The notes: a model not told the origin generated them from the letters alone. A stretch of DNA of 51,169 bases from a virus (IMGVR_UViG_3300010150_000027:1-51169), one strand, 5' to 3'; numbered from the stretch's first letter, positions 3,991 to 50,132 are shown. Numbers and translations are program-made.

Positions 3991-4881
3991 ATGACAATAT
4001 GGGCTACTCAATACAGACCTACTCTTAGTGAGATAGTAGGCCAAAACGAAGTTATTAATGAGATAACTTCTTTACAACACTTTATCTTTTATAGCCCACA
4101 AGCAGGTACAGGCAAAACTAGCCTTGCTTTGGCTATGGCTAAGGATTTGGGTTGGCCTATTCATGTATTCAATGCTAGTAGTAAAAAGACTAGAGGTATT
4201 GATTTCGTAGAAGAAGAGTTATTACCCATGTCTAGGACAGGCAACACAAACCAATTCTTTCTTCTCGATGAAGCAGACCAATTAACACCTGCCGCACAAT
4301 CAGCATTAAAGGGTGTTATAGAAAACTCACAGGGTTATTTTATCCTTACTTGTAATGATTTGAGTAAGGTTAGCAAGTGGCTACAATCTAGGTGTAGAGT
4401 TTTAAGGTTCAATCCAATTTCTAAGGAACACATAGTAAAAAGATTATCTATGATAGCAGGTAAAACAGGTACGGTTATTACAGAAGGTCAATTGAATCTG
4501 ATTGCTGATGCACATGAAGGAGACTTAAGAAATAGTATCAATGCTTTACAGGCATTTTCTGTTCACCCCGAACCGGAAGGGTTCATCAACGGCCTTGTTT
4601 CACAGGGTCTTGACGCTAAACATTTTCTCACGTTATGTTTCCGTGAGAATGATTATAATTTAGCCTTAAAAGAAACATACGGAATACCGCCTAGAGAAGT
4701 GGTAAAAACAGTATTCGACTACGCTATTACATCTACCGCAAAAGTAGATAGTATAATGCGTATCGTAGATGCCGCAGCAATAACCGAAAGGGATTTGATA
4801 CACGGTGTCGAGGAAAATATAGCCATAGCAAACTTTGTCCGTTTGTGTATGGAAGGATATACAAAAACTTTATATCCGTAA
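3991..4881 (+). CDS. rfcS: replication factor C small subunit (clamp loader)
   Basis: WATQYRP, Walker A AGTGKTS, FNAS, Walker B LLDEAD, ILTCN, SRC motif, GDLR. Confidence 0.95.
   Translation: MTIWATQYRPTLSEIVGQNEVINEITSLQHFIFYSPQAGTGKTSLALAMAKDLGWPIHVFNASSKKTRGIDFVEEELLPMSRTGNTNQFFLLDEADQLTPAAQSALKGVIENSQGYFILTCNDLSKVSKWLQSRCRVLRFNPISKEHIVKRLSMIAGKTGTVITEGQLNLIADAHEGDLRNSINALQAFSVHPEPEGFINGLVSQGLDAKHFLTLCFRENDYNLALKETYGIPPREVVKTVFDYAITSTAKVDSIMRIVDAAAITERDLIHGVEENIAIANFVRLCMEGYTKTLYP
4869..4881 (+). promoter_or_regulatory. class I promoter variant TTTATATCCGTAA
   Basis: Variant of the repeated motif, followed by GAAAAT as in other copies; upstream of ATG 4919. Confidence 0.55.
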
Positions 4882-6327: not shown

Positions 6328-7845
6328 ATGGAAAATATATTACATGGAGAAGAAGCAAGAGACAAATTACTCTTAGGGGTAAACAAAGTCGCTAATGCAA
6401 TCAAAGGTACATTAGGTGCAAATGCAGGTACAGTAATAATACAGAACCCTGCGGGGCTACCTTTAATCCTTAATGATGGTGTATCTATCACTAAGTCTAT
6501 TACCGACCCCGACCCTTATATTCAGATGGGAATTAATCTCATGCAGGAAGTCGCTCACGAAGCACAAAGTAAATCGGGAGATGGTACTACTACTGCTACT
6601 ATCTTAGCACAGGCATTATGTAATACGATGGCTGATGATGATACAGATAATATTAAGATAAAAGAAACTCTTACTACTATGTGTAAGTATATAGTAGATG
6701 AATTAAAAGAGATGGCTACTGATGTTAATACTGATGACTTATTAGATGTATGTATTGTAGCATCTAATAATGATGTAGAATTAGGTAGATTGATACACCA
6801 AGCACTTTTGGCTGTAGGTGAAGAAGGTAATGTGATAATAGAAAGCAATTCTGATAGCACTACTACGTGGTCTTTAACCGAAGGACTTGTTATGGATAGT
6901 GGGTATGTAAATAAACTGATGGCTAATGCAGATAGAGAGAAGTGTATTTACGATAATGCCTCTATACTTTTAACGCAAGAAAAAATAGAGACTTTCAATC
7001 ATATAGTCCCTGCACTAGAATTATCTATGAAAGCAGGTAAGCCTTTAGTGATAGTTTGCCATGATTATAACCCAAGCATACTACCTAACTTACTTGTTAA
7101 TATTATGCAAGGTAAATTAAATGTCTGTATAGTTAAGACGGCAGGTTTCGGTGATACTCAAGACCATTGGCTTCAAGATATAGAAGCGAAATGTGGTGGT
7201 AAAGTATTCAATTCATTTGACAGTATTATTAAGGTAAAAGAAAATGAGTTAGGTATTTGTGATAAAGTAGAGATAACTTCTACTACATCTACATTCATTA
7301 AAGACGGTGTTGATGAGGATTACATAGGTAATCTTACCTCAATACTAACTCAAGTAGAAACTGATTTTGAGCGTGAGATAGTAGAGAATAGAATTGCTAG
7401 ACTCACTTCGGGTATCGCATCTATTAAAGTAGGTGGGATTACCGACATAGAACAAAGAGAACGTAGAGAACGTGTAGACGATGCTGTCAATGCCGCCACT
7501 CTTGCTAGAAAGCAGGGAGTGGTATGTGGTGGTGGTGTAGCACTTAAGGATATTTGGTGGAAAACTCTACCACTACATGATAAGATGGATGGTAAAATAT
7601 ACTTTGATGCAATCCTAGCACCTATCAAACAGATTTTATCTAATAGCGGTGAGCCTATGAAAAATCTTGCTTACGTTAAATCAAAAGGCGAAGGTTATAA
7701 CGCAGTTTCAAGAAAATATCAAAACTTGAGATTTCATGGTATTATTGACCCTGTTGGTGTAAGTATCAACGCTGTCGAATCCGCTTTCTCTATCGCTATA
7801 CTACTACTTACTACTGATTGTGCTATAATTGCACCACAGGAGTAA
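6328..7845 (+). CDS. groEL: group I chaperonin GroEL
   Basis: NDGVSI, GDGTTTATILAQA, KPLVIV, AGFGD, RIARLTSGIASIKVGG, GGGVAL, GIIDP. Confidence 0.95.
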   Translation: MENILHGEEARDKLLLGVNKVANAIKGTLGANAGTVIIQNPAGLPLILNDGVSITKSITDPDPYIQMGINLMQEVAHEAQSKSGDGTTTATILAQALCNTMADDDTDNIKIKETLTTMCKYIVDELKEMATDVNTDDLLDVCIVASNNDVELGRLIHQALLAVGEEGNVIIESNSDSTTTWSLTEGLVMDSGYVNKLMANADREKCIYDNASILLTQEKIETFNHIVPALELSMKAGKPLVIVCHDYNPSILPNLLVNIMQGKLNVCIVKTAGFGDTQDHWLQDIEAKCGGKVFNSFDSIIKVKENELGICDKVEITSTTSTFIKDGVDEDYIGNLTSILTQVETDFEREIVENRIARLTSGIASIKVGGITDIEQRERRERVDDAVNAATLARKQGVVCGGGVALKDIWWKTLPLHDKMDGKIYFDAILAPIKQILSNSGEPMKNLAYVKSKGEGYNAVSRKYQNLRFHGIIDPVGVSINAVESAFSIAILLLTTDCAIIAPQE

Positions 7846-7877: not shown

Positions 7878-8822
7878 ATGACATGGGGAACACAAGCACC
7901 ACAAACAACTAAGACGACAGAAGCACCACAAGGAGTGGTGTATAACGAAGAATACTACCGTAATATCTTTAAGAATAACAAATCACAATCTGTTGATTTG
8001 CGTATGGGATTGGTAGGTTGGGAAAACACCGCTAAGACAGGACTAGCACTATCTATGATGGATGCAGAAATCAGAGCAGGTAAAAAGGTAGCAGTATTTG
8101 ATGTAGATAATTCAGCAAAGTCTACCGTAGATTATATCTACCCCGATGCAGAAAATATTATGGTAATACCACTACATGATGAAACAGATGATTCTATCTT
8201 TGATGCAGATAACAATGTAGATTACAAAGCATTGGTTGATAAGACTAATTGGTTTGTTAATATTCTAGCAGAAGAGGTAGCAGCCAACCCTGATGATTGG
8301 GCGGGCGTAGTATTCGATGGTGGTTCAACGTTCCTAAAATGGTGTGAACACGCTATGAGAGCATCACTACTAAGTCGTGGTATCATTGAAACAGAAGATG
8401 GTACTTTTAACCAAAAAGAATGGCGAGAACGTAATCGTATGAACAGAAATGTTCTAACTAGGATTCACGCTTTACCTGTACCTAAAGTATTCTTTACCTT
8501 CCACCTAAAACCTGTACAGCAGTATATGGATGACGGCACAGGTAAGAAAGTACTAATGACAGTCGGTGATAGACCCGATTGGGATAAAGGTACTATGCGT
8601 AAGTTTTCGCAACAGATTTTCCTAAATAGATACATGAAAAAGGCAGACGTAGCCGCAGGTGTTAAGGGCGATAAAACCTTAGCCGATGGTGAGTGGGCTA
8701 TCAAAGGTACTATTGAGGAAATGAAAGGTAAGAACATGGAGTATGTAGGTACAACACATACTATTTTGACGGTGAAAAGCGGGAAGGTAGAGTGGACAGG
8801 ACTACCTTTCTTGAATGAGTGA
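7878..8822 (+). CDS. P-loop ATPase, RecA-fold/Sak4-like recombination protein
   Basis: Variant Walker A GWENTAKT, VAVFDVD, Walker B VVFDG, KVFFTFH. Confidence 0.65.
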   Translation: MTWGTQAPQTTKTTEAPQGVVYNEEYYRNIFKNNKSQSVDLRMGLVGWENTAKTGLALSMMDAEIRAGKKVAVFDVDNSAKSTVDYIYPDAENIMVIPLHDETDDSIFDADNNVDYKALVDKTNWFVNILAEEVAANPDDWAGVVFDGGSTFLKWCEHAMRASLLSRGIIETEDGTFNQKEWRERNRMNRNVLTRIHALPVPKVFFTFHLKPVQQYMDDGTGKKVLMTVGDRPDWDKGTMRKFSQQIFLNRYMKKADVAAGVKGDKTLADGEWAIKGTIEEMKGKNMEYVGTTHTILTVKSGKVEWTGLPFLNE

Positions 8823-8831
8823 GGTGATAAT

Positions 8832-9659
8832 ATGCAATCTATCGTAGATACACAATCGTTGATATGGTTGCTAAGGTGTACACAACGTAGACAAACCATT
8901 TCCGGTAAAAATATACCACAAGTTTCGGCTTGTATGTTGAATGCCGTAGGTGGTAGAATGTCTACTTGTTCTCTCACTAAAGATGGTGTATCATCTGTAG
9001 GTATCTTCTCGATACCATCTACAGGAGAAGCCAAAATACCTGTTAGCGACATAGAGACTATGTTGGGAATACTAAAGTATCATGGAAATGCTTTGACCTT
9101 AACTTATGATAATGATAAGTTAAAACTAAAGTCTAAGTACAAGCAAACAACGCTTACTGCTTCCGAGAATGCTTTGGCTTTCCCACATAGTCCTACCACA
9201 TTGAATGAGTGGTCTAATACATCAATAACATTTGCCGCAAAACTAAATGTAGGTAATGAAATAGGGTATACTATGAATGATGGTAGTATCTTACAACCTG
9301 CTTGTTCTTGGGAATCAATAGATGCAGTACGTTTATTTGAAGCAGTTAGGTGTGATGAAATGAACGGACAAAAATTAAACACATTCACTTTTAAGGGAGA
9401 TGAAAACGGACTTAGTGTTGTCGTTGGTAAGGAATTAAAAGGTAGAACAGAATATGAGTTGGATAGGAGAAGCACACAATGGCCTTTTACGGCTACCTAT
9501 CAAGGTGGTTTCAATAATCTATTTGCTAACATTAACGGTAAAATAAACTTATACTTTTTTGATTTTACACAATGGGAACAAGGCGTTAAGTTGCTTATAA
9601 CTTTAGGTGATGGAGACTTTATTTTCCAATCAGCACTACTAGGAGATGAATATATATGA
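8832..9659 (+). CDS. putative divergent sliding clamp (PCNA-like)
   Basis: 275 aa with an alternating beta/alpha pattern; sits near PolB in a genome that has RFC. No diagnostic motif. Confidence 0.5.
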   Translation: MQSIVDTQSLIWLLRCTQRRQTISGKNIPQVSACMLNAVGGRMSTCSLTKDGVSSVGIFSIPSTGEAKIPVSDIETMLGILKYHGNALTLTYDNDKLKLKSKYKQTTLTASENALAFPHSPTTLNEWSNTSITFAAKLNVGNEIGYTMNDGSILQPACSWESIDAVRLFEAVRCDEMNGQKLNTFTFKGDENGLSVVVGKELKGRTEYELDRRSTQWPFTATYQGGFNNLFANINGKINLYFFDFTQWEQGVKLLITLGDGDFIFQSALLGDEYI

Positions 9660-10012: not shown

Positions 10013-10187
10013 TTGTGAACATTGTGGTAAACCTTTAGTGCCTATTGGTACATCTCGTAAAAATGGGAAGGCAACACACAATGATTGGGGTACACGTAGA
10101 CTACACAAGAAATGTTGGATGGAATTAAAAGATTATAACCGTAAGATTAGGTGGAATAGTTATGATAGTAGAGCAAGGCAAAGGTAG
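10005..10187 (+). CDS. small Zn-finger protein
   Basis: CEHC...HKKC; overlaps both neighbouring genes. Confidence 0.6.
   Translation: MSNCEHCGKPLVPIGTSRKNGKATHNDWGTRRLHKKCWMELKDYNRKIRWNSYDSRARQR
10132..10144 (+). promoter_or_regulatory. class I promoter motif ATTATAACCGTAA upstream of polB
   Basis: TTATAA ends 23 nt before ATG 10162. Confidence 0.65.
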
Positions 10188-12402
10188 AGAAGTATTGGTG
10201 AGGTATAGAGATGCACAAGGTAATAGAAAAACCGAGTCAATCAAAGGCCACTATCCGTACTGTTTTATTGAGACTGATAATGCCCCTTATGTAGAAGATT
10301 GTATAAGAAAAGAAGATGGTTATACAGGTCTTTATGGGGAAGATTTAACTAAGATTGTTGTTTCGCATAACTCGGAGTTGAGGAATCTATCTTATTACGG
10401 GACAACGTGGGAAGCAAATGTACCTTATGTTAATCGTGTACTTATAGATAGGCTAAAAGAAAAAGATAACAAACCTTTTGAAAATTATAAACATAGGACT
10501 TGGTATCTTGATTGTGAATGGTCGCCCGCAACAAACCAAATGAGGGTGATAGTAGTTTATGATAATTTTACCGAAAATGAATATGTATGGTTTGTATGCC
10601 CTTCTATTAAAGAAGAAGGTTTGGCTGATGGCGAGCCTAAAAGGTTCGATACATACGGTGATTACGAATACCCTACCCCTGCACTCGGATTTGGTAGTGA
10701 AAGGGATATGCTTATTCATTTCTTGCGACACATGAAGAGACAAGACCCTGATATTATCACAGGATGGTATGTCGTTGGGGCTGACATTAGAACAATAGTA
10801 GAGAGAAGTAGGGCTTGCGGTCTTAATCCCGCCACACTATCTCCTATGAGAAGAATTAGATACAAGTTTGGTGATTGGGAACAACCAATCGTAGGTAGAA
10901 ACTGTATAGATTTGATGATAGCGTTCTCTAAAATATGGGAATTGAAAAACGGTAAATTACCGTCTTACAAGTTAGACGATGTTGCTAACGAAGTTTTGGG
11001 GGAAAAGAAAATTGAATTACCCGATGGACACGATACTTATTATTCAGACCTTCCATTGTATGTACATTATTGTAGACAAGACGTAAGGTTACTACCTAGA
11101 CTTGACTTAAAAGTAAATGCTTTAGATTACTATACTGCATTACAACACGTTGTTCAATGCGACCTGCGTTCCACACCTTTTATCACTAAGATGTTCACAA
11201 GTTTAGCGTTGAAGGATGAAAAGTTTGATAAGAGAATACCTACACAACCACAGTTTCCTTACACACCTTATGACGGGGCTAACGTCTTAGAACCCGAAGT
11301 AGGTGTATATGAAAACGTAGGTATCTTAGATATAAAGGCTATGTATCACAGTAACGTACACAAGTATGGTATATCTTGGGACACACTAGACCCCGAAGGC
11401 GAGGATTGTGGTAACGGTAGTAAGTTTAACGTAAAAGAAAAAGGTTTATTGTGTAGGTTGATGGATGATATGACTTATCTACGGAATGAAAACAAACTTA
11501 AGATGATGATGAGTGACACACTAGAGAAGAAAAACAAATGGGATATAATGCAGTTTGCTTGTAAGTCTCTTGTGGCATCTATGTATGGTGTAGCAGGTGA
11601 TTCTAAGTATGGTTTTTATCATCCCGAAGTAGCATCTGCTATAACATATACATCAAGGAATACTCTTGAGGAATTAATGTATCACGCAGAGGATATAGGC
11701 TTCAAGGTCTACTACGGGCATACAGATTCTATATTCTGTAACATAGATAACCCCGAAGATGGTGTTAAGGCACTAGAAAAAATAAACCAAGAAATGTCTC
11801 CGATAGAAACCGAGTTTGAAAAGTGGTGTCCTAGTATGTTAATTATGGCTAAGAATAGATATGCGGGAAAAGTAACTTGGACTGATGGTTCTTACCATGA
11901 CCCCAAGACTTATGTTAAGGGCATCGAATTAAAACAGTCGAGAATGCCTAGCGTTATGAAATTGTGTATGAATACAGTTATTGATGGGATATTAGATGGT
12001 ACAGACCAAAAACAAATCACACAAAGTATATCCTCTCTTGTTGATGATGTAGTTAAGGGAAAAGTAGACCCCTCTGACCTATGTATGAAGGGTAAACTAG
12101 AAAGAAACCTAGATGATTATAAGGTACTATCGGGTTCTTCCGCAGGTGCGGCTTGGGCTAACGAATATCTAGGTAAAGGATATAGAAAGGGTTCATTCTT
12201 CAAAGTTACCATAAATGAAAATGGTAAATACATAGCATTCGATGACCCGTCTGATATAGACGGTGTAACAAAAATAGGTAATAAGATTCTTGCACAAAGA
12301 TTTATCTTAAATAAAATAGAGCCTTATTACAATTTAGCCCAATGGGATATTCAACCTATACATAACTCTTTAGAAGGTATGAGTGGGATGAAGTGGTTAT
12401 AG
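10162..12402 (+). CDS. polB: family B DNA polymerase with 3'-5' exonuclease domain and variant motifs
   Basis: ExoI YLDCE, DPDIITGW, ExoIII YCRQD; polymerase motifs DIKAMYHS, KSLVASMYG, YGHTDS, KNRYAG, KGIE. Confidence 0.95.
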   Translation: MIVEQGKGREVLVRYRDAQGNRKTESIKGHYPYCFIETDNAPYVEDCIRKEDGYTGLYGEDLTKIVVSHNSELRNLSYYGTTWEANVPYVNRVLIDRLKEKDNKPFENYKHRTWYLDCEWSPATNQMRVIVVYDNFTENEYVWFVCPSIKEEGLADGEPKRFDTYGDYEYPTPALGFGSERDMLIHFLRHMKRQDPDIITGWYVVGADIRTIVERSRACGLNPATLSPMRRIRYKFGDWEQPIVGRNCIDLMIAFSKIWELKNGKLPSYKLDDVANEVLGEKKIELPDGHDTYYSDLPLYVHYCRQDVRLLPRLDLKVNALDYYTALQHVVQCDLRSTPFITKMFTSLALKDEKFDKRIPTQPQFPYTPYDGANVLEPEVGVYENVGILDIKAMYHSNVHKYGISWDTLDPEGEDCGNGSKFNVKEKGLLCRLMDDMTYLRNENKLKMMMSDTLEKKNKWDIMQFACKSLVASMYGVAGDSKYGFYHPEVASAITYTSRNTLEELMYHAEDIGFKVYYGHTDSIFCNIDNPEDGVKALEKINQEMSPIETEFEKWCPSMLIMAKNRYAGKVTWTDGSYHDPKTYVKGIELKQSRMPSVMKLCMNTVIDGILDGTDQKQITQSISSLVDDVVKGKVDPSDLCMKGKLERNLDDYKVLSGSSAGAAWANEYLGKGYRKGSFFKVTINENGKYIAFDDPSDIDGVTKIGNKILAQRFILNKIEPYYNLAQWDIQPIHNSLEGMSGMKWL

Positions 12403-13618: not shown

Positions 13619-13766
13619 AATTAATGTATGTGCGGCTTGCGGTGCTAGTGAGTCTTGGGCTGATGAAGATTTGATGTGGAGAGTAACAGGTGAAGAAGGG
13701 GCAGACCCCGAAGAAATTACCGTAGTTACTTGTAAATGTGGTAATAAACAAAAGAAAGAAGAGTGA
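13611..13766 (+). CDS. small Zn-ribbon protein (51 aa; not in ORF track), TFS/TFIIS-ribbon-like
   Basis: MNRINVCAACG...EEGADPEEITVVTCKCGNKQKKEE*. GGTGA upstream; fills the gap between two genes. Confidence 0.65.
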   Translation: MNRINVCAACGASESWADEDLMWRVTGEEGADPEEITVVTCKCGNKQKKEE

Positions 13767-13770
13767 TTTT

Positions 13771-14784
13771 ATGCTTAGTTTTCCTAGAGAGATTGGTCTT
13801 AGACGTAAGATTTGTAAATCTCAAGAGGAATATGATATTTACGTTAAAAGTATTAACGGTAAATCTTCTTGTTATACATCTCTGTATAGTTTTCAACAAA
13901 TGCACCCTAATATGTCTTGGAAAGTAGACCCCGAAACGGTCATCATGGATAGAGCATGGTGGGATTTTGATATTGTAGAAGGTGGTACTCTAGATGATGT
14001 AAAAAGAGATGTAGCAGTTTTACTAAATAGACTTAAGGGAGATGTAAGGTTAGTCTTTACAGGTAGAGGATTTCATATCCATCAGATGTTCGATAAAAAT
14101 GTCATTGGTACTACCATAGCCAAGCACGTTGATAGGTACGAGAGAGAGGTCGCTAAGGGGTTAAAAACACTAGATGGCGTAGGTCATCCCCTTAAACTTA
14201 CACGCATACCCGATACATACAATACTACTAGAAAGAAGTGGGCTGTTAATGTGGACTTAGATGCGTTCAAAGCAGACCCTTTAGGTTACAAGATACCGGA
14301 AAGACCTAACGCATCTCTTAGAATCAATGACCCTTTTAAGGGAAAAGAAAAACAATCAAACTTCAGTATTATAAAATGGATTGCTAATAATCCTTTACAA
14401 GTAGAATACCTACCTATTACGGGTAGTTTTGACGGAAATATAACTTCTGCTAGTCAGATACCAATACCACCATGTATAGACAATGCTATGAGGCATGAGA
14501 ATCCTAGACATGAGGTAAGAATAGCGTTGGCACAACATTTGTATGAGAATCTTAGGTGGTTTGCACACCCTAGTACATTAACGGTAAAACAAAAAAATGA
14601 TATTACCGAAGAGATTATAGATTTTATATCCACATTAGGATGGAGAGACTTCAATGAGTACACAAGTAGAAAGCACGTTAGAAGTCTACTTAACTATGAG
14701 AGAACACCCTCATGTTCGTGGCTACAGACAAGAGGATTATGCGAAGCATCTTGTTGGAGAGATGACGGCACAAGGAGAAAATAA
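13771..14784 (+). CDS. archaeo-eukaryotic primase, PriS catalytic domain fused to PriL-like Fe-S domain
   Basis: WWDFD, TGRGFHIH, RIPDTYN; C-terminal PPCI...SCSWLQTRGLCEASC. Confidence 0.85.
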   Translation: MLSFPREIGLRRKICKSQEEYDIYVKSINGKSSCYTSLYSFQQMHPNMSWKVDPETVIMDRAWWDFDIVEGGTLDDVKRDVAVLLNRLKGDVRLVFTGRGFHIHQMFDKNVIGTTIAKHVDRYEREVAKGLKTLDGVGHPLKLTRIPDTYNTTRKKWAVNVDLDAFKADPLGYKIPERPNASLRINDPFKGKEKQSNFSIIKWIANNPLQVEYLPITGSFDGNITSASQIPIPPCIDNAMRHENPRHEVRIALAQHLYENLRWFAHPSTLTVKQKNDITEEIIDFISTLGWRDFNEYTSRKHVRSLLNYERTPSCSWLQTRGLCEASCWRDDGTRRK

Positions 14785-31632: not shown

Positions 31633-31878
31633 TCACATTTGTGTAGAAATACCCATAGCCCCTGCTACTATTGCTATTAAGGTAAAAATAATTTTTTGCA
31701 TATTTCCCATATATGTACCTATTAGACCGTTAGTTATCTCTAACTCGGTAGCCACTTTAGCAAGTCCTGTCTGCATACTTACTTGGGATTGTACCAATTG
31801 TTCAATTAATCTTTCGTGTCTTTTTACAGACTCTTCTAAATTGTCTAATCTTATTGCGACAACATCAGAATCGGCCAC
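31633..31878 (-). CDS. coiled-coil + C-terminal TM protein (lysis-accessory/holin-like candidate)
   Basis: Heptad repeats followed by IIFTLIAIVAGAMGI. Confidence 0.5.
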   Translation of the reverse strand: MADSDVVAIRLDNLEESVKRHERLIEQLVQSQVSMQTGLAKVATELEITNGLIGTYMGNMQKIIFTLIAIVAGAMGISTQM

Positions 31879-32273
31879 TAAGCCTCACCCATGTGTGCTT
31901 CTAATCGAGCCACAAGGTCTGCTTTCTTACCTTTTACTGAAAGACCTGCTTCTTTTAACTTCTCTTTCAATTCCGCAACATTATGAGAGTCGAGAGTTTT
32001 TTCTATTTTCTCTATCTCTTCTTTTGCTTCTTCGGCTTTCTCCTTAACCTCGTCTACTGAATCTAATAATTCATCTAATGTTATTTTCCCATCAGCATTT
32101 AGTACTAAGTATTTTTTATACAAAAATACACCTATACCTACTAATGCTGCTAAAGATAAAAGTATCAATTCTATATCATCTAATAATGACGAAGAATCTA
32201 AGGCTATGCAATCTATTGTTTCGTTAAGTGCGTTTAGGCACGTTTCTTTTGTTGTGTTAGTTGTGTTATTCAT
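31878..32273 (-). CDS. membrane-anchored protein with C-terminal SAP domain
   Basis: TM segment LILLSLAALVGIGVFLY; SAP-like NVAELKEKLKEAGLSVKGKKADLVARL. Confidence 0.75.
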   Translation of the reverse strand: MNNTTNTTKETCLNALNETIDCIALDSSSLLDDIELILLSLAALVGIGVFLYKKYLVLNADGKITLDELLDSVDEVKEKAEEAKEEIEKIEKTLDSHNVAELKEKLKEAGLSVKGKKADLVARLEAHMGEA

Positions 32274-32456: not shown

Positions 32457-33026
32457 TCAACTCCAACGTGGGCCTTCGGCCCATCCTACTAGACTTGTTC
32501 TGCTACCTTTAGTAATAGGTGCTACTGCGTGTTCAAAGTAAGATAAGAAACATATTACTGTACCTTTCTTAGCAAGTGCTATTGGGTCGGGGTTTTGTGT
32601 ATGACTAAATGTTAATTCTCCACCTTTATAATCTTTGGGGTCTGATAGTTGGACTACTACACTTATTTTTCTATGCATACCATCTTGTCTGTTCCAATCA
32701 ATATCGTGGTGCATACCATAATGGTAGCCTATATCTTTGTATTCTGTAAATTGTAATGGTGGTAGATAAGATACTTCTACATCAAAATGTTCATTTGCTT
32801 TTTCTACATACCACATCATTTGTTCTGTAAGAGGTTTATATTTTTCATCTTGCAGCCATCTTATTTGTGTTTTTCTATGGCTATCTTCTTTACCTTCACC
32901 TGTTCTAAAGGTAGATGCCGCTTGAGGTTCTGCTTCCTTTGCTGCCTCAATTATTTCATTCACTATTTCTTCACTCAACGCTTCTTCCCACATTATCCAT
33001 GCGGGATGTTCCATCATTTCTGACAT
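32457..33026 (-). CDS. 2OG-Fe(II) dioxygenase (prolyl-4-hydroxylase/PKHD-like)
   Basis: HxD in YGMHHD, RKISVVVQL, YKGGEL, distal His in EHAV, RTSLVGW. Confidence 0.9.
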   Translation of the reverse strand: MSEMMEHPAWIMWEEALSEEIVNEIIEAAKEAEPQAASTFRTGEGKEDSHRKTQIRWLQDEKYKPLTEQMMWYVEKANEHFDVEVSYLPPLQFTEYKDIGYHYGMHHDIDWNRQDGMHRKISVVVQLSDPKDYKGGELTFSHTQNPDPIALAKKGTVICFLSYFEHAVAPITKGSRTSLVGWAEGPRWS

Positions 33027-33475: not shown

Positions 33476-34051
33476 CTAACCAAATGTAAGTGTTATCGAA
33501 CATTTTGGGGCTGTACTTGTTACTCCGCCAACAGTGCTTTGTGCTTTTACTGCAAAAACTATTTCATCACCACTAGCAGGTGAGGTAATATTTTTACCTG
33601 CAACATCAAAATTAACCCTCAATCTCATTCCCATACCAGTTGTAGTATTTGTAGCATCTTGAGATGTAGATGCTGTACCTACAACACTTGCAGTATTGCT
33701 ATTACTTAAACTTGAAGTGTCCAATGTCAAATCCCACGCAAACGTAGGAGAGCCACTACCTAGCCATCTTAGATACCCTGCGGGTATAATATCTATCCTT
33801 GATAGTCCGAAATTATCGACTGCATCTTGAAGTTCTCCGGCATCTATAGTCATCGCAGCAGAAAAGAAATTACCATCGGCAAAAAACTCGGAACCATTAA
33901 GTGCGCCCCCTACACCTAACCCTTCTAAAGAATTATCTGCCGTACAAGCATTATCATAATTACCACTTGATGATGTCGCTATACTTAAAAGAGAGCCGCC
34001 CCCTATTTGAGAACAGATACCTATTATTGTTGGATAAATAATATCACCCAA
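33476..34051 (-). CDS. beta-rich virion protein, probably fibre-associated
   Basis: S/T/G-rich, 191 aa, overlapping the end of the fibre gene. Confidence 0.55.
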
Positions 34052-37000
34052 CCACTATCCATGCTGACGAAGATGTAGCAATAAATGTTTTTGCTTCATA
34101 CCTTGTTGTAATTGTTTGGTTAGAAGCAGAACCGTTCATTGTATCTCCCGCACCGGCGGCAATAGTAACTGTATTTGTTGTATCACTTACTACTATGTAT
34201 TGTTCTCCAACCGCCGGACTAGCAGGTAATGTTAATGTTGCGGTATTATTAACTATAATATATTTACCTGCATAAGTATCTGTTAATGTAATACTACTTC
34301 CTAATGTAGAAATCTTACCTCTTTTAGCCTGAAACTCTTGTTCTACTGCTAGACCGTTAGGTATATTTACATCCCCACTATTGTCTGCTGTAAGCCATGT
34401 GAGAGTACCTGACCCATCTGATATAGTTAATGACTGACTGACAGTCGCACTACTAATATCTGCATTTCCTATGAGAACATTGTAACTTCCTGTTGTCAAA
34501 CTGGTTGCACCATTGTTAGAAGTAAGGATAATATTTTTCTGACCCGAAGTGATGTTCTGACCTGCACTTCTTCCGACCCCAAGATTGTAACTTCCTGTCG
34601 TCAAATCTTTGAGACTGTCTGCACCAATTCCTACGTTTTGATTTGCCGCATTACTAGCAACTCCTTGACCTGCATTCCAACCGATGAAAGTGTTTGCCGA
34701 ACCTGTTCCAGACGTCATAGCATTGTGGCCTACGATAGTATTGTAACCTGTTCCGCTAGTTCCGGCTTGGCTTCCTATAACTGTTTCGGAATAGCCTGTG
34801 CTACTAACACCTGCCCGATAACCGACAAAAACTCCTGTTCCTTGATTGGTAATTGCTGCACCCGCAGTATGTCCTATCATAACGTGGTCGCCACCTGTGG
34901 AAAGTGCTGTTCCGGCCTGATATCCCACTAAAATATTTCTATCCCCTGTGCTTAATGTTGTCCCTGCGTCTACACCCAATGCTACGTTGTAGTTGCCGCT
35001 ACTAGCAGTTAAAGAATCCAAAGCACCGCTACCCAATCCTATGTTAGAAGTAGCAGTAGTAACTGCATCTGATAATTCACCAATTGCAGAAGCACCGCCA
35101 CTAACCGTAGTCCAAGTTGGAAGTGTGTTCTGTCCTTGTGTAGTAAGAACTTGACCGGCAGTTCCGTAATTTCCTGTTCCTAAAGCAAACCCACCCGAAG
35201 GATGAATACCTAATGCAAGATTATTTCCTGAGCCTACTCCTATTTGGAATTGGCCGCCATTAACTCCGACTGTTGCTTGATAAGCCGGATTTGTACTACT
35301 ATTATCTTTGAAGTAAATAAATCCGTTATTACCTGCTAATGTTAAACGAGGGTAATTTACTCCTGTTCCTATATACAAACTTTGGCCGTCAAACTTTAAT
35401 CTATCAGAACCACTTGATGAACCACTATCATTAAATAATACTTGTTCATCACTACCGCCTGTAGGTCCTGTAGGCCCCGTAGGACCCGGTGGTCCTGCAC
35501 TACCTGTTGAACCCGTTGGTCCTGTCGGTCCTGTCCCCCCTGTTGAACCCGGCGGCCCAGTTGGTCCGGTATCTCCGGGCGGGATTGTAAAGGCAAAAAC
35601 CTTAGCAGTCGCAGGTCCACTAGATGCAATTGCTAACGGACCACTCGCTACCGTAGGCGTACCAAAACCGGCTGCCGTTCCGGTAGGTCCAGTTGGACCA
35701 GTCGGCCCCGTAGGCCCAGTAGGTCCGGGTGGCCCCGCAGGTCCATCCGGTCCGGTACTTCCGGGTGGTATTGTAAACGCAAAGATTTTTGCAGTTGCCG
35801 GACCGCTTGAAGCAATTGCTAAAGGCCCGCTTGCTACGGTGGGTGTCCCAAACCCTGCGGCTGCCCCATTACTACCATTTGAACCGGGCGGTCCATCCGG
35901 CCCAGTAGGACCTGTGGGACCAGTCGGTCCTGTAGGACCAGTAGGGCCTATTGGTCCCGTAGGACCTGTTGGGCCTGTCGCACCTTGCGGTATAGTGAAT
36001 GCAAAGACTTTCGCTGTATTAGGGCCGCTAGAAGATACACCTATTGGTCCTATGGTTGCTGTCGGTGTTCCAAATCCTGCACCCGGTCCTGTCGCACCTT
36101 GCGGTCCTGTTCCGCCGGGTGGTCCAGTAGGTCCTGTAGGGCCTGTTGGACCCGTAGGGCCTGTATCACCTTGTGGTATAGTAAAAGCAAAAACTTTTGC
36201 GGTGTCGGGACCACTTGAAGAAACTGCTATTGGTCCGGTACTAGCGGTAGGAGTACCAAAACCTGCTGCTGTTCCTGTCGGCCCTGTTCCGCCGGGTGGC
36301 CCTGTGGAACCTGTCGGTCCCGGTGGTCCTGCCGGACCAGTTGCGCCTTGAGGAATTGTAAACGCAAATACCTTAGCAGTATTTGGGCCACTAGATGAAA
36401 CATTAATAGGTCCTGTTGTAGCAGTAGGTGTTCCGAATCCCGCAGCCGCACCTGTAGGACCTGTACCACCATCGTTTCCGTCATTACCTGTCGGTCCGGT
36501 AGGACCTGTTGGGCCGGGTGGACCTGCGGGTCCTGTGCTTCCGGGTGGAATTGTAAAAGCAAATACTTTTGCGGTATTAGGACCACTACTAGATATGGCT
36601 AAAGGACCGCTACTAACACTTGGTGTTCCGAAACCTGCCGCACTTCCTGCTGAACCTGTAGGTCCTGTAGAACCCGGTGGTCCCGTAGGTCCCGTAGGTC
36701 CCGTTGGTCCGGTTGGACCTGTCGGTCCGGTATCTCCGGCAGGTATAGTAAAAGCAAAGACCTTTGCTGTATTTGGCCCACTACTACTTATAGCAAGAGG
36801 ACCGGAAGAAACACTAGGTGTTCCAAATCCTGCTGCTGTGCCTGTAGGTCCGGTCGGTCCTGTTGGACCATCGTTTCCGGTAGGGCCGGTAGGACCGGGT
36901 GGCCCACTAGGACCTGTAGGTCCTGTACCGCCGGGCGGTATTGTGAATGCGAATACTTTAGCGGTGTCCGGTCCACTAGCAGTAATGCTTAAAGGTCCTG

Positions 37001-40000
37001 CCGCCATAGTAGGTGTTCCGAAACCGGCTGCTGCACCAGTAGAACCTGTGCTACCTGTAGAACCCGTACTACCAGTTGGGCCGTTAGGGCCGGTTGGTCC
37101 GGTTGGTCCTGTAGGCCCTTCATCACCTTGAGGACCTGCCGGTCCTGTAGGACCTGTGTTGCCACTAGGTCCCGGTGGGCCTGTAGGCCCTACACTACCT
37201 GTAGGTCCGGTGTCCCCTTTATCTCCTGTTCTAGCAAAAGTTACCATAACATCTTCACCATTTGAAAATGGCGCAGAAGCAGAAGAGTCTATTGTACTTA
37301 CTGTTATGTCAAAGTAACCCGAATCTTCTGATAGAGAAGTAATAGTATGTAAAGTAAATTGACTTGCATCTAGTAAATTACTAATTTTAACGTGTCCTTT
37401 TATTGCAGATGTAGAATCATCTATTGTACGAAGGAATGATTGAATATCTGTTCCGTCTAAATCGCTGTCATCTATATAGATTCTAGTAGCAGATGATTGA
37501 GTGGCGTTGTTTAGTTTTACCTTACCTGCGCCGGGGTCGCTATCTGTTGTATTTGTAGAGAAATCGTATTTAAAAGATGCGCCACCAAAATTACCGTCTG
37601 CGCCTGTAGGACCTGTAGGTCCGATAGAACCTTGACTTCCAGTACTACCCGTTGGTCCGGTAGGTCCGGTCGGCCCAGTAGGTCCCGTAGGACCTTGACT
37701 TCCAGTAGGACCTTGTGGCCCAGTAGGTCCTGTAGGCCCTGCCGGAATCGTGAAGGCAAATACTTTAGCATTATCCGGGCCGCTTGTTGCTACTGCTAAA
37801 GGGCCTGTAGTTATGGTAGGTGTACCAACACCTGCTGATGCACCCGCCGGTCCTGTTGGGCCTGTAGAACCTGTAGAACCTGTTGCGCCCGCCGGACCTG
37901 TTGGACCTGTTGGGCCGGTAGGTCCTGTCGGACCAGTAGAACCCGGTGGGATTGTAAATGCAAAGACCTTTGCTGTGTCCGGCCCACTAGAGCCGATTGC
38001 TAATGGACCACTAGATACTGTCGGTGTCCCAAAACCTGCTGCGACTCCGGTAGGTCCTGTATTACCTGTAGTACCTTGAGGCCCTGTAGGTCCGGTTGGT
38101 CCTTGACTACCTGTGCTACCTGTTGGTCCCGGTGGACCTGCTGCGCCTGTGCTACCTGTTGGCCCTGTAGGCCCTTGAGGCCCTGTTCCACCTTGAGGTC
38201 CTGTTGGTCCATCCGGCCCATCCGGTCCTGTTGGCCCTGTATTTCCAATAGGTCCTTGACTGCCCGTTGGTCCCTGTGGTCCAGTAGGGCCTGTAGGACC
38301 GGCAGGTCCGGTATCTCCTTTATCACCCGTTCTTGCGAATGTGACTAAAATATCTTCCCCCGCACTAAAAGGTGATGTAGCAGAAGAGTCTATACCACTT
38401 ACTGTTATATCAAAATAACCTGTTTGTTCAGTTAGTGAAGAAATAGTGAATATTATAAATTGTGAAGCGTCTAGTAAATTACTTATCTTTACATGACCTT
38501 TTATTGTAGAAGTAGAATCGTCTATTGTTCTCATAAAAGATTGAATATCGCTACCGTCTAAATCGCTATCATCAATAACAATATGTGTAGCGGCATTTTG
38601 TGTAGCACTATTTAATCTTAGTTTACCTGCGCCGGGGTCTGCTATACCATTAGCAGCATCGAAATCATACTTAAATGAAGCCCCACCAAAATTACCATCC
38701 GGTCCTGTCGGACCTGTTGGTCCTTGACTACCTGTAGGGCCTGTAGGTCCTGCTACGCCTTGAGGTCCAGTAGGACCTTGAGGCCCTGTTGAACCTGTTG
38801 TTCCTTGTGGACCTTGCGGTCCATCCGGTCCTGTAGGGCCTTGTGAACCTGTAGGTCCTGACGGGCCTGTCGGCCCTGCTACTGTAGAATCTGCACCAGT
38901 TGGCCCTGTTGGTCCTGTCGGACCTGTTGGTCCTGTACTACCACTTGGACCTTGAGAACCTGTGCTTCCGGTTGGGCCTTGAGGACCTGTTGGTCCTGTA
39001 CCACCTGTCGGTCCTTGTGAACCTATTTGACCTGCCTGACCAAAGTTTACTACATACTTTGTGTTGTTTGTTAGAACGTCTGTTTGACTAGCGGTTGAAG
39101 GGCTTACCCCTAGTGTATACCACCCGGTGTTATCTGTAACAGTATTAACTATAAAGTTAGCAAACTCTTCTACATCTCCGCCTCGATGTTGTATTTGTAA
39201 TAGACCTTTTCTAGTGTTATTAGATAAACCTACAAAACTAAACCAATCATCTTGATTTACAGCATTAGCATCTTCTTCATCAATATAGATTTCAGTAATG
39301 TTAGCGAATGTACCATTATCAAATCTCATAAACCCTGAACCGGGGTCTGATTCTGTTGTAGTCGTACTAAACTTCCAAACTAAACCTACCCTACTACCTG
39401 CCGGACCTATAGGACCGCCCGGACCTAAAGGTACTGTAAACTCAAACACTTTTGCTGTGTCGGGTCCACTTACTGCTACCGCTAAAGCACCTGTTGTAAT
39501 AGTTGGTGTTCCTACACCTGCTGCCGCACCTGTTGAACCCGTATTACCTTGTATTCCCTGTGGACCTTGAGAACCTGTACTACCAGTAGAACCCGTAGGA
39601 CCTGTGGGTCCCGCAGGACCTTGTGAGCCTGTCGGCCCTGTAGGACCTGTATTTCCTTGAATACCTTGAATACCTTGAATACCTTGTGGACCTGTCGGTC
39701 CTGTAGCATTATTTTGATATGCAATCCAAGTATCTTGTGTAGCACTATGTCTTAAATATACTTTTTGATTTTGTGTTAAGGTAAATGTACCGCTAGTACC
39801 CGGATTACTAACCCCTTGACCTACAAGAGAAACTACTGTACCGTCATCAGTAGCAATAGTAATATTACCACTACCTTCGTTCATAATTTGTAATTCACTT
39901 AATCCTACTGGAAAAGGGACAGAAGAGTATGGGGGTAATTTATATGTATATGTAGAAGAGTTAGTATGTATAATCAAACGTGCTTCGTCTGCTCTAACGA

Positions 40001-40199
40001 ATGTATAATCAGCGTTTTTTGTTTCTAGTGGCCTAACGTCTGCCGACCTACCACCTGCTGTAGCACCATCACCAATAAAAACACCATTAGCGGCTGAACC
40101 TGTATTTGTATCTAGGAATATTTGTTCTTTAGTAGGGGTAACTCCTGCCCTTTGGGTAGTGGTAGCAGTAAAAAGATTTTTATTACCTGTTAGTGCCAT
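34044..40199 (-). CDS. collagen-like tail fibre/adhesin (2051 aa)
   Basis: Long Gly-X-Y tracts (mainly GPT), repeated spacer modules, and C-terminal NxxxG-type beta-helical repeats. Confidence 0.85.
35460..39700 (-). repeat. coding repeat array: Gly-X-Y tracts, 11 copies of a ~32-aa module and 3 copies of a ~120-aa domain
   Basis: [32 protein letters not shown] occurs 11 times; the (F)KYDF...DPGAGK-type domain occurs 3 times. Locally GC-rich. Confidence 0.9.
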
Positions 40200-48701: not shown

Positions 48702-50132
48702 ATGGGAAGGTATCAAGGGGGCTACGACCTCATAGAAAAATACGCCAATGATAGGACTTTTAGGAATAATTCCGACTTTGCTCGGTTTTTGCACGAAGTT
48801 GAGCCACAATGCTCGATAAACAGTTGGAGATGTAGAATACAACGGTGGGTCAAGCAAGGAAATGATTATAGACAAGTGGAAACAACCGAATTATCTGTAA
48901 ATAAGATAAGAGTTTACTATGATAAAGCAAATGACACTTATTTGACGGTGTTAGATGCACTAGGTGGTGAAATGGTTGCTATTGATGGTGATAAACATAG
49001 AAACATGAAAAAAGATTATTCAGATGACGGTAATGGTTTGTCTGCAACAGATTTGGCTAGAAAATACGGAATACCTACGGGTTGGATTAAAGAATACATA
49101 AGAGTCAATGAATGGAATCACGGTATGGACATTTTTACCGATGAAGAAGTTATGACAAAGACTACTGATGATTTGGTAAATGAAACTCTTGCTGTTAGAC
49201 GTATGCAAGTAGCAGAAAAGGTAGAAAGTAAGCGTTGGGCTGAAATAGAAAAAGACGCTAACGCATATAGGGCTTTTAGCGATACAATTCTTAATGAGTT
49301 TCTTACTTTAATCCCAAAAGTAAAAACAACTACGAAAAACAGAATCAAGATGACGGAAAACGGTAATTACGCTGTAGTAATTTCTCCTACTGACTTACAT
49401 TATGGTAAATATGGTTGGAAAGATGAAGTCGGTGAGGAATATGACCTTGACGAAGCACGTTCAAGACTTATTGACCGCACAAACAATTTAATTTCAAGAT
49501 TGCCAAGTAGACCCGACAAGGTTATTGTGACTGCGGGTTCTGATTGGTTTCATGTTGATAATGACGCAGGTACTACTACGAGAGGAACACCACAAGATAT
49601 GGCGGCTACTCCTGCACAAATACTTATGGGTGGTTGTGAGTTAGCAAGAGAGCATATTGAAATGCTTCGTGCTGTTTCTCCTGTACAAGTAGTATTTATG
49701 TGCGGTAATCACGACAGGCATAGTAATTTTGCCTTGATGATGTATTTATCTGCACTTTATGAAAATGTAGATGACGTAGAAGTAATAGTTAGTCCTTATC
49801 CTCGACAGTATATAAAATACGGAAACTCTTTACTAGGTTTTACTCATGGTGATGGAGTTAGGGGTAATGACTTACCTGCACTTATGGCTACAGAAGAAAG
49901 ACAGGCTTGGGGAGAAAGAGAACACCATTATTGGTTTCACGGACACCTACACCACATGAGATTAACAGAAAAAGCAGGATGTACGGTAATTCAATTACCT
50001 AGTCTAGCCGGACACGATAGATACCACGCTAGAAAAGGATATGTTCTTGCTAGAGCAGGTATTTGCGCCCATATTGTAGATAAAGAATTGGGATTAGTAG
50101 GTAATTTGTTTTCTCCGGTGGTGCATGAGTAA
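48702..50132 (+). CDS. calcineurin-like metallophosphoesterase with N-terminal HTH region
   Basis: DLHYG, GSDWFH, GNHD, HGD, HGHLHH; HTH-like LSATDLARKYGIPTGWI. Confidence 0.85.
   Translation: MGRYQGGYDLIEKYANDRTFRNNSDFARFLHEVEPQCSINSWRCRIQRWVKQGNDYRQVETTELSVNKIRVYYDKANDTYLTVLDALGGEMVAIDGDKHRNMKKDYSDDGNGLSATDLARKYGIPTGWIKEYIRVNEWNHGMDIFTDEEVMTKTTDDLVNETLAVRRMQVAEKVESKRWAEIEKDANAYRAFSDTILNEFLTLIPKVKTTTKNRIKMTENGNYAVVISPTDLHYGKYGWKDEVGEEYDLDEARSRLIDRTNNLISRLPSRPDKVIVTAGSDWFHVDNDAGTTTRGTPQDMAATPAQILMGGCELAREHIEMLRAVSPVQVVFMCGNHDRHSNFALMMYLSALYENVDDVEVIVSPYPRQYIKYGNSLLGFTHGDGVRGNDLPALMATEERQAWGEREHHYWFHGHLHHMRLTEKAGCTVIQLPSLAGHDRYHARKGYVLARAGICAHIVDKELGLVGNLFSPVVHE

Follow-up and report, generated by a model that had tools for sequence, protein, structure and literature searches.

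What does it mean for a viral replicase when all three of its polymerase motifs depart from the consensus? The question is raised by the viral DNA IMGVR_UViG_3300010150_000027:1-51169 (hereafter the window, the whole stretch of 51,169 nucleotides that was analysed), which encodes a family B DNA polymerase (PolB) with MYHS, ASMYG, HTDS and KNRY instead of the canonical DxxSLYPS, KxxxNSxYG, DTDS and KKRY consensus. An earlier note on this DNA had read the substitutions as one coordinated change in an active enzyme with altered substrate or metal handling, possibly for a modified base, with a lineage signature as the fallback. Two issues are at stake, namely whether the enzyme works and whether it works on anything other than ordinary deoxynucleoside triphosphates (dNTPs). 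We consider it probable that this is an intact PolB, likely active and the sole replicase, whose signature would consist largely of compensating pairs round an unchanged core, with ordinary dNTPs as the predicted substrates.

The polymerase gene and its catalytic residues

Of 346 homologs found, 120 were listed, with 53-97% identity to the window PolB. The gene and its motifs are as follows; residue numbers are those of the encoded protein.

10162..12402, + strand: family B DNA polymerase, 746 residues, uninterrupted, with exonuclease and polymerase domains (Pfam)
10504..10524, + strand: ExoI, YLDCEWS; catalytic D117 and E119 retained; W120 is the co-varying partner of A207
10762..10788, + strand: ExoII, GWYVVGADI, with GWYVVGAD at residues 201-208 (10762..10785); catalytic D208 retained; Phe>Ala207 fixed; position 203 varies in the clade
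11065..11085, + strand: ExoIII, HYCRQDV; Y303 and D307 retained in 120/120 listed homologs
11329..11352, + strand: motif A, DIKAMYHS, residues 390-397; D390 and steric-gate Y395 retained; Pro>His396 in the group C clade only
11563..11589, + strand: motif B, KSLVASMYG, residues 468-476; K468, Y475 and G476 retained; Asn>Ala472
11713..11730, + strand: motif C, YGHTDS, residues 518-523; metal-binding D522 retained; first Asp>His520
11851..11862, + strand: the KKRY motif as KNRY; second Lys>Asn565, partner of His520
11932..11943, + strand: KQSR; Gln592/Arg594 replacing Arg/Asp (R613-D615 of Pfu, the second minor-groove reader, by alignment with KOD)

The motifs DIKAMYHS, KSLVASMYG, YGHTDS and GWYVVGAD all lie in open reading frame (ORF) 10162-12402, just as the earlier note had quoted them. 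For mapping R613-D615 onto 592/594, the Pfu numbering was assumed to be offset by +1 relative to KOD. A Pfam scan of the ORF gave DNA_pol_B (E 1e-32) and DNA_pol_B_exo1 (E 5e-9), both above cut-off. The AlphaFold2 model of the 746-residue protein (pLDDT 95.7, pTM 0.89) has KOD-type polymerases, RB69 polymerase and E. coli Pol II as its top Foldseek matches, with TM-scores of 0.7-0.8.

The catalytic set of an intact PolB is all present: the motif A Asp, the second motif C Asp, the motif B Lys, Tyr and Gly, the steric-gate Tyr and the carboxylates of ExoI to ExoIII. D390, D522, Y395, K468, Y475, D117, E119, D208, Y303 and D307 are retained in 120/120 listed homologs, and the earlier remark that the two essential aspartates (D390, D522) and the steric-gate Tyr (Y395) remain holds across this set. 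Against 11 near relatives, the ratio of nonsynonymous to synonymous substitution rates (dN/dS) lies at 0.040-0.057 for the whole gene, with similar values for the polymerase core (0.023-0.055) and the exonuclease core (0.026-0.060), which points to purifying selection. One PolB match occurs in each of five relatives judged complete, and no PolA was found in the four of them that were searched. With its catalytic residues retained and its dN/dS low, the PolB is very likely an active enzyme as far as sequence can tell, as the earlier note supposed, and it is likely the sole replicase of the virus. Alternatively, the polymerase domain might be inactive and kept as a scaffold or an exonuclease while a host polymerase replicates the virus; three canonical motifs do deviate, and no assay data were met with. 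However, every catalytic residue is retained, the polymerase core shares the low dN/dS, no second polymerase was found and the gene sits in a full replication block, which makes an inactive domain hardly credible.

Depth of the signature and its paired positions

The odd residues A207, M394, H396, A472, H520 and N565 each occur in 120/120 listed homologs, and so does W120. At 77 IMG/VR loci, 74 ORFs with motif A or C were found, and 73 of these carry MYHS, ASxYG and HTDS together with KNRY; the single exception lacks KNRY only and is taken to be L067, whose match stops at residue 550. Given such fixation, the signature is neither a sequencing error nor rare. Representatives at 50% identity form a tight clade down to 43% identity, followed by a gap to ~34%, and the signature is fixed down to 43%.

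From its gene layout compared with the published description (PMC5434244), we infer that the virus is a group C magrovirus. A 147-row alignment was assembled from 8 rows of the group C clade, 15 of the sister magrovirus clade and 124 others, with five rows being near-duplicates. His520 and Asn565 occur in all 23 rows of both magrovirus clades. Ala472 is found in 8/8 group C rows, 9/15 other magrovirus-clade rows and 6/124 others, and His396 in 8/8, 0/15 and 0/124, respectively. Met394 is common outside (23/124 outgroup rows), and HTD also appears in unrelated lineages, e.g. phage RM378. These differing depths indicate that the change in motif C came first and that motif A was altered in group C alone, which does not fit a single coordinated change in the three motifs. 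The claim that ExoII is altered stands for Phe>Ala207, the fixed change; it fails for Asn>Tyr at position 203, which is not fixed in the clade, where N, A, W and F are also seen. A fixed lineage signature, rather than one coordinated change of the dNTP pocket, is the best reading on these sequence grounds, and what had been offered as the fallback becomes the preferred description.

The alignment check proposed in the earlier note also revealed a partner of motif C beyond the three motifs that it had singled out, namely Asn565 in KNRY. All 30 rows with His at 520 are without the Lys, and all 117 rows with Asp have it (147 rows with both states; 3 of 150 rows were gapped, and row P0217 was scored by eye); each of the two traits changes five times on the tree. 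In Pfu polymerase, the second Lys of KKRY (K593) forms a hydrogen bond to the minor groove at the penultimate primer base and is held in orientation by a salt bridge with the first Asp of motif C, D541 (PMC3733885); by alignment, K593 and D541 correspond to positions 565 and 520 of the window PolB. Only the second motif C Asp is required for metal binding, and the piPolBs, in which the same Asp is lost and KxY is altered, are nevertheless proficient (PMC5695915). Phage RM378 is distant on the tree, and its His-Asn pair is likely of independent origin; its genome, in which PolB was located through the supplement of PMC7544198, encodes a single detected PolB, in which HTDS and NRY accompany canonical motifs A and B, and no PolA. 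We propose that the canonical Asp-Lys minor-groove salt bridge would be replaced by the His520-Asn565 pair, with His520 likely supplying the groove contact at the penultimate primer base, and that the two-metal chemistry would stay unchanged.

The assumption of the earlier note that all the altered positions line the dNTP pocket or bear on metal handling does not hold for position 520, where the canonical Asp orients the groove-reading Lys (PMC3733885) and is not needed for metal binding (PMC5695915). It might still be asked whether His520 alters metal handling, e.g. by coordinating Mn, Zn or Fe. Histidines are able to bind transition metals, His520 is two residues from the catalytic Asp522, and some tables count the first motif C Asp among the active-site residues (PMC4142720). 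Nevertheless, it is the Asp of motif A and the second Asp of motif C that bind the metals (PMC5695915, PMC3564110), and the perfect tracking of the KKRY position by His520 fits a groove-reading role; we regard a change in metal handling as highly improbable.

A search for more HTD lineages with a region of P0245 returned only P0245 itself. Another PolB group with an HTDG motif C is present in Table S2 of PMC7544198 (rows 326 and 2459); row 2459, which lies outside the tree, has GNY at the KKRY position, again without Lys.

The exonuclease provides a second pair. Trp follows the ExoI DxE in 14/14 Ala207 rows, with one Trp row keeping Tyr, and three changes of Trp120/Ala207 are placed on the tree. 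Trp120 would likely occupy the room left by the missing ExoII Phe and thereby allow proofreading to go on.

At the KQSR site, Gln/Arg at 592/594 is a trait of group C only (8/8 clade rows, vs Arg/Asp in 97/147 rows). That Gln592 might be a groove-reader loss unique to this lineage was considered, an idea that is weakened by T4 gp43, which also has Gln at 592. Other clade-fixed changes at otherwise conserved sites are Asp>Asn86 (window 10417-10419), Ile>Asn398, Gly>Ser498 and Asp>Gly706. The sister clade takes in split PolBs and contigs of up to 107 kb, as published for other magrovirus groups. In two sister-clade loci (L114:9944-12314 and L115) PolB lies in two overlapping frames (647 + 172 residues), owing to a frameshift, a split or an assembly error, and the PolB of L012 is also interrupted by a break.

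The nucleotide site and the choice of substrate

The motif B Asn, replaced by Ala472 here, is presumably the counterpart of Asn828 of yeast DNA polymerase epsilon (Pol epsilon). The conserved fingers Asn828 of Pol epsilon acts as a ribonucleotide sensor, a role proposed as general, and the N828V variant has full activity, less inhibition by nucleoside triphosphates (NTPs), more insertion of ribonucleoside monophosphates (rNMPs) and a mutation rate raised 3.8-fold; Met before the gate Tyr, as in Met394, is the natural Pol epsilon residue (PMC10639073). The motif B Asn of RB69 polymerase reaches the beta-phosphate via water (PMC3564110). By analogy, Asn>Ala472 likely removes the ribonucleotide-sensor position of the window PolB. 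His396 may either make up for the lost Asn or add to the change, and the enzyme could plausibly extend mismatches or exclude ribonucleotides slightly differently. Ala472 was also tried for co-variation with position 393 and with His520, neither of which was supported (median p 0.375 and 1, respectively).

How far might this relax selectivity? One can picture a working replicase in which the loss of Asn weakens ribonucleotide exclusion and lowers sensitivity to ribonucleoside triphosphates (rNTPs), with the altered groove readers easing extension of mismatches and ultraviolet lesions. The fully active, less NTP-inhibited, rNMP-inserting and mutator phenotype of N828V (PMC10639073) speaks for it, as does the change of two of the three Pfu minor-groove readers; piPolB and B2, likewise without the first Asp, perform lesion bypass (PMC5695915, PMC7544198), and a class I/II ribonucleotide reductase is found in 0/5 complete magrovirus-type genomes, with likely reliance on host dNTP pools. 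In contrast, the steric-gate Tyr395 is retained, Met394 is natural in Pol epsilon, and proofreading has an intact site, on which purifying selection acts. Besides, 6/15 other magrovirus-clade rows retain the motif B Asn, T4 gp43 likewise has Gln at 592, a viral RNase HII is found in 0/5 of the same genomes, His396 may restore the contact, and the equivalence with N828 is a presumed one. On balance we consider such relaxed selectivity unlikely. A related proposal is that a magrovirus PolB without its ribonucleotide sensor and with rebuilt mismatch readers works at a low dNTP:rNTP ratio, giving virion DNA rich in rNMPs or a raised error rate with lesion tolerance, the group C His396 being a further natural retuning of a position that engineers have mutated; this too appears decidedly unlikely to us.

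The earlier note had drawn an analogy with the LYP positions engineered in archaeal PolBs. The KOD variants concerned take 3'-O-blocked sugars as substrates; at the Tyr position success was limited to Ala and Gly, and the nine residues that gave an improvement at P410 do not include His (10.1101/2023.03.20.533374). The Tyr that is replaced in those variants is intact here, and the analogy does not carry over.

Several points weigh against compensating pairs round an unchanged core. The independent contrasts for 520/565 are few, with 3/3 in the same direction on the first tree (p 0.25), and a second tree gives five contrast pairs on all branches and one on well-supported branches. The contrasts for Trp120/Ala207 are also 3/3 in the same direction (p 0.25). 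All the trees are from FastTree, with long branches, and the by-eye scoring of P0217 enters here as well. The co-variation test at 520/565 taken alone is suggestive, and with so few independent contrasts much of the case for the His520-Asn565 pairing rests on the structural precedent. At the nucleotide site, loss of Asn against loss of Ser393 gives a median p of 0.375, and no partner is established for Ala472 or His396; moreover, Asn>Val alone in Pol epsilon raises rNMP insertion, and mutation 3.8-fold (PMC10639073), and 'neutral' may be wrong here. In the accessible text of the literature searched, we met with no assay of a magrovirus PolB and none of the RM378 polymerase.

Could the pocket instead have been shaped for a modified nucleotide that is synthesised ahead of replication? 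Ala472, Met394 and His396 are located at or beside the dNTP site, the minor-groove readers are altered, ~15-20 kb of the genome lies outside the 51-kb window, and many genes are without a family. The search for nucleotide-modification genes proposed in the earlier note was run on the five complete relatives. In these, 468 ORFs were called, of which 164 of at least 100 residues have no window counterpart, and 144 of the 164 were scanned, made up of 142 cluster representatives and 2 others; shorter ORFs, and long ones that spanned segment borders, were outside the scan. The nucleotide-related matches were DNA methylases (three genomes), a deoxynucleoside monophosphate (dNMP) kinase and a pyridoxal phosphate (PLP)-dependent enzyme (one genome each), and a weak match to pyrimidine-dimer glycosylase. 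The thymidylate synthase/hydroxymethylase, PurA/PurZ and QueC families gave 0/5 each in six frames, three of the five records being at least 90% complete. No conserved nucleotide-modification pathway was found in the complete relatives, a result that does not cover divergent enzymes, ORFs below 100 residues or the missing part of the genome.

AGCT, GATC and CGCG occur 0 times each in the window, where 142, 142 and 40 copies would be expected; in the five relatives (G002-G006), two to four four-base palindromes have been eliminated per genome. The eliminated sets differ among group C genomes, which suggests differing host restriction systems; a literature search turned up no methylation motifs of Poseidoniales among the papers listed. 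T4, whose cytosines are modified, has eliminated no four-base palindrome in 48 kb. The published pattern for hydroxymethylase phages agrees with T4 (PMC6286503). Moreover, the motifs of T4 gp43 are fully canonical, and therefore handling of a modified base needs no such motif changes. Halovirus HCTV-5, however, has que genes and yet zero GATC; hence palindrome loss disfavours only full base substitution, and the site loss is compatible with partial modification. One relative does have a PLP-enzyme gene and a methylase-like gene upstream of polB, and another the dNMP kinase, but the nucleotide-related matches among the 144 scanned ORFs are confined to methylases of patchy occurrence, a single kinase and a single PLP enzyme, and the signature spans viruses with differing accessory genes. 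With no supporting gene in the searches of relatives, a pocket adapted to a modified nucleotide is quite improbable. What stands of the proposed altered substrate handling concerns the sugar and fidelity, for which Ala472 makes it possible; a modified base is unsupported.

Some related observations are recorded here. CTGG is nearly absent from the window (6 vs 121 expected), and AGCT and GATC are both absent from all eight other-clade magrovirus loci checked (L099, L101, L103, L104, L114, L119, L121 and L123). The PLP-dependent enzyme and methylase-like genes of G006 (L097:5451-7370) lie directly upstream of polB; PLP-enzyme/methylase pairs recall DNA hypermodification clusters. DNA methylase genes flank polB in G005 (three, L082:292-4784) and in G004 (one, L091:1607-2821). 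A protein cluster occurs in 3/5 complete relatives (L079:16570-17175; L087:10345-10890; L090:5697-6227), and its representative has the weak pyrimidine-dimer glycosylase match (E 8e-4, below cut-off).

The virus and related polymerases

Magroviruses are among the most abundant ocean viruses. The other features of the window that bear on its identity are as follows.

3991..4881, + strand: clamp-loader ATPase, RFC small-subunit-like (PHROG 168, E 1e-33; NCBIfam RFC small subunit, E 2e-43, below cut-off)
6328..7845, + strand: GroEL-type chaperonin, a magrovirus group B/C trait (PHROG 5725, E 6e-110; PMC5434244)
7878..9659, + strand: two conserved genes 5' of polB, putative RadA-like ATPase and sliding clamp (by position and PMC5434244)
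12689..15662, + strand: PD-(D/E)XK nuclease, putative primase (13738-14784) and ERCC4/Hef-like nuclease, 3' of polB (Pfam PDDEXK_1, ERCC4)
48702..50132, + strand: calcineurin-like phosphoesterase adjoining the portal gene (matches the group C PolD-exonuclease-like gene, PMC5434244)

The window is laid out as a plus-strand replication block (clamp loader, GroEL, PolB, PD-(D/E)XK nuclease and ERCC4 nuclease) and a minus-strand head-tail structural block, with the phosphoesterase gene beside the portal. GroEL, the phosphoesterase in the structural block and the unsplit PolB are traits of group C (PMC5434244), as is the absence of ligase and DnaQ, neither of which appeared in Pfam scans of the called ORFs. 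The five complete relatives measure 64.7-71.7 kb, close to the lower limit for magroviruses (65-100 kb), the window being a 51-kb part; the nearest record, G001, is a 24-kb fragment without polB. The PolB lineage likely comes from viruses of marine archaea, and the literature gives Poseidoniales archaea as magrovirus hosts.

The genes at 7878..9659 are kept in 5/5 complete relatives and had no informative family match in Pfam, PHROG and NCBIfam profile searches. The putative primase had no profile match either, and the names clamp, primase, MCM, RadA, SSB and helicase were all given by position. PDB sequence searches with the putative primase and helicase yielded nothing useful, and ESM Atlas gave no usable match for two conserved unknown genes, only unnamed viral clusters in which a helix-turn-helix family made up a minority. 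The phosphoesterase has a tblastn match in 3/5 relatives; a fourth carries a Metallophos gene of its own. GroEL (6328-7845) is patchy, with 2/5 complete relatives having it at 31-35% identity, vs 47-65% for PolB. The structural block contains a small SAP-domain protein (window 31878-32273, minus strand). A collagen-repeat fibre of 2051 residues (window 34044-40199, minus strand) lies in a G+C-rich stretch (46-52%), and three genes away is a 2-oxoglutarate (2OG)-Fe(II) dioxygenase (window 32457-33026, minus strand), likely a prolyl hydroxylase for the fibre; as a base-modifying enzyme the dioxygenase was rejected, for it occurs in only 1/5 complete relatives, the same one as the fibre.

The 'Magro' PolBs are described as a PolII-like clade, with the same gene context and a GW-type ExoII (PMC7544198; Philosof et al. 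2017, PMC5434244). A close relative with MYHS, UniRef50_A0A2E0GTG4, is in Table S2 of Kazlauskas et al. 2020 (PMC7544198); the accessible 'Magro' text of that paper says nothing of HTD, KNRY, Asn>Ala or Pro>His, which its logos (Figs 4 and S6) could show. No description of active-site substitutions of magrovirus PolB was met with in the accessible parts of the literature searched (including PMC5434244, PMC7544198, PMC11706807 and PMC10160649), and no paper with the string YGHTDS turned up among those listed. The lineage provides a natural test of residues deemed invariant: the Asp-Lys groove reader, the fingers Asn and the ExoII Phe are all replaced in a thriving viral lineage, two of them with an identifiable co-varying partner, and one monomeric 746-residue enzyme would allow direct tests of them. 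It warns that a missing first motif C Asp is no ground for calling a PolB inactive, and it gives polymerase engineers a new scaffold. Should selectivity turn out to be normal, the signature would be a useful phylogenetic marker with a modest structural lesson only.

The Thermococcales PolB3 enzymes (KOD, Pfu and 9N) and RB69/T4 gp43 share with the window PolB the fold (TM-scores of 0.7-0.8), the catalytic aspartates, the steric gate and the exonuclease carboxylates, but they keep the Asp-Lys groove reader, the motif B Asn, the motif A Pro and the ExoII Phe. In HGIVDS-type motifs, which we take to be those of the B2 group, the His occupies the Tyr position of motif C. The archaeal B2/G2 (Dpo2-type) translesion PolBs resemble the window PolB in motif C, where there is one Asp together with a conserved His; their ExoI is degenerate and their ExoIII missing, whereas both are intact in the window PolB, and they are auxiliary rather than sole polymerases (PMC7544198). 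The PolB of Rhodothermus phage RM378 (NC_004735), a cultured phage, resembles the window PolB in having HTDS with NRY and in being the single detected polymerase, but its motifs A and B are canonical and it has 522 residues, with a predicted split before the palm (PMC3061061). The active piPolB shares the loss of the first motif C Asp and of the canonical KxY, and differs in TTD with Thr rather than His, in KTRG rather than KNRY, in its TPR subdomains and in self-primed synthesis (PMC5695915). Finally, yeast Pol epsilon N828V shares Met before the gate Tyr and the replacement of the fingers Asn by a small hydrophobic residue; that change was engineered, whereas the change in the window PolB is natural, fixed and has His396 added to it (PMC10639073).

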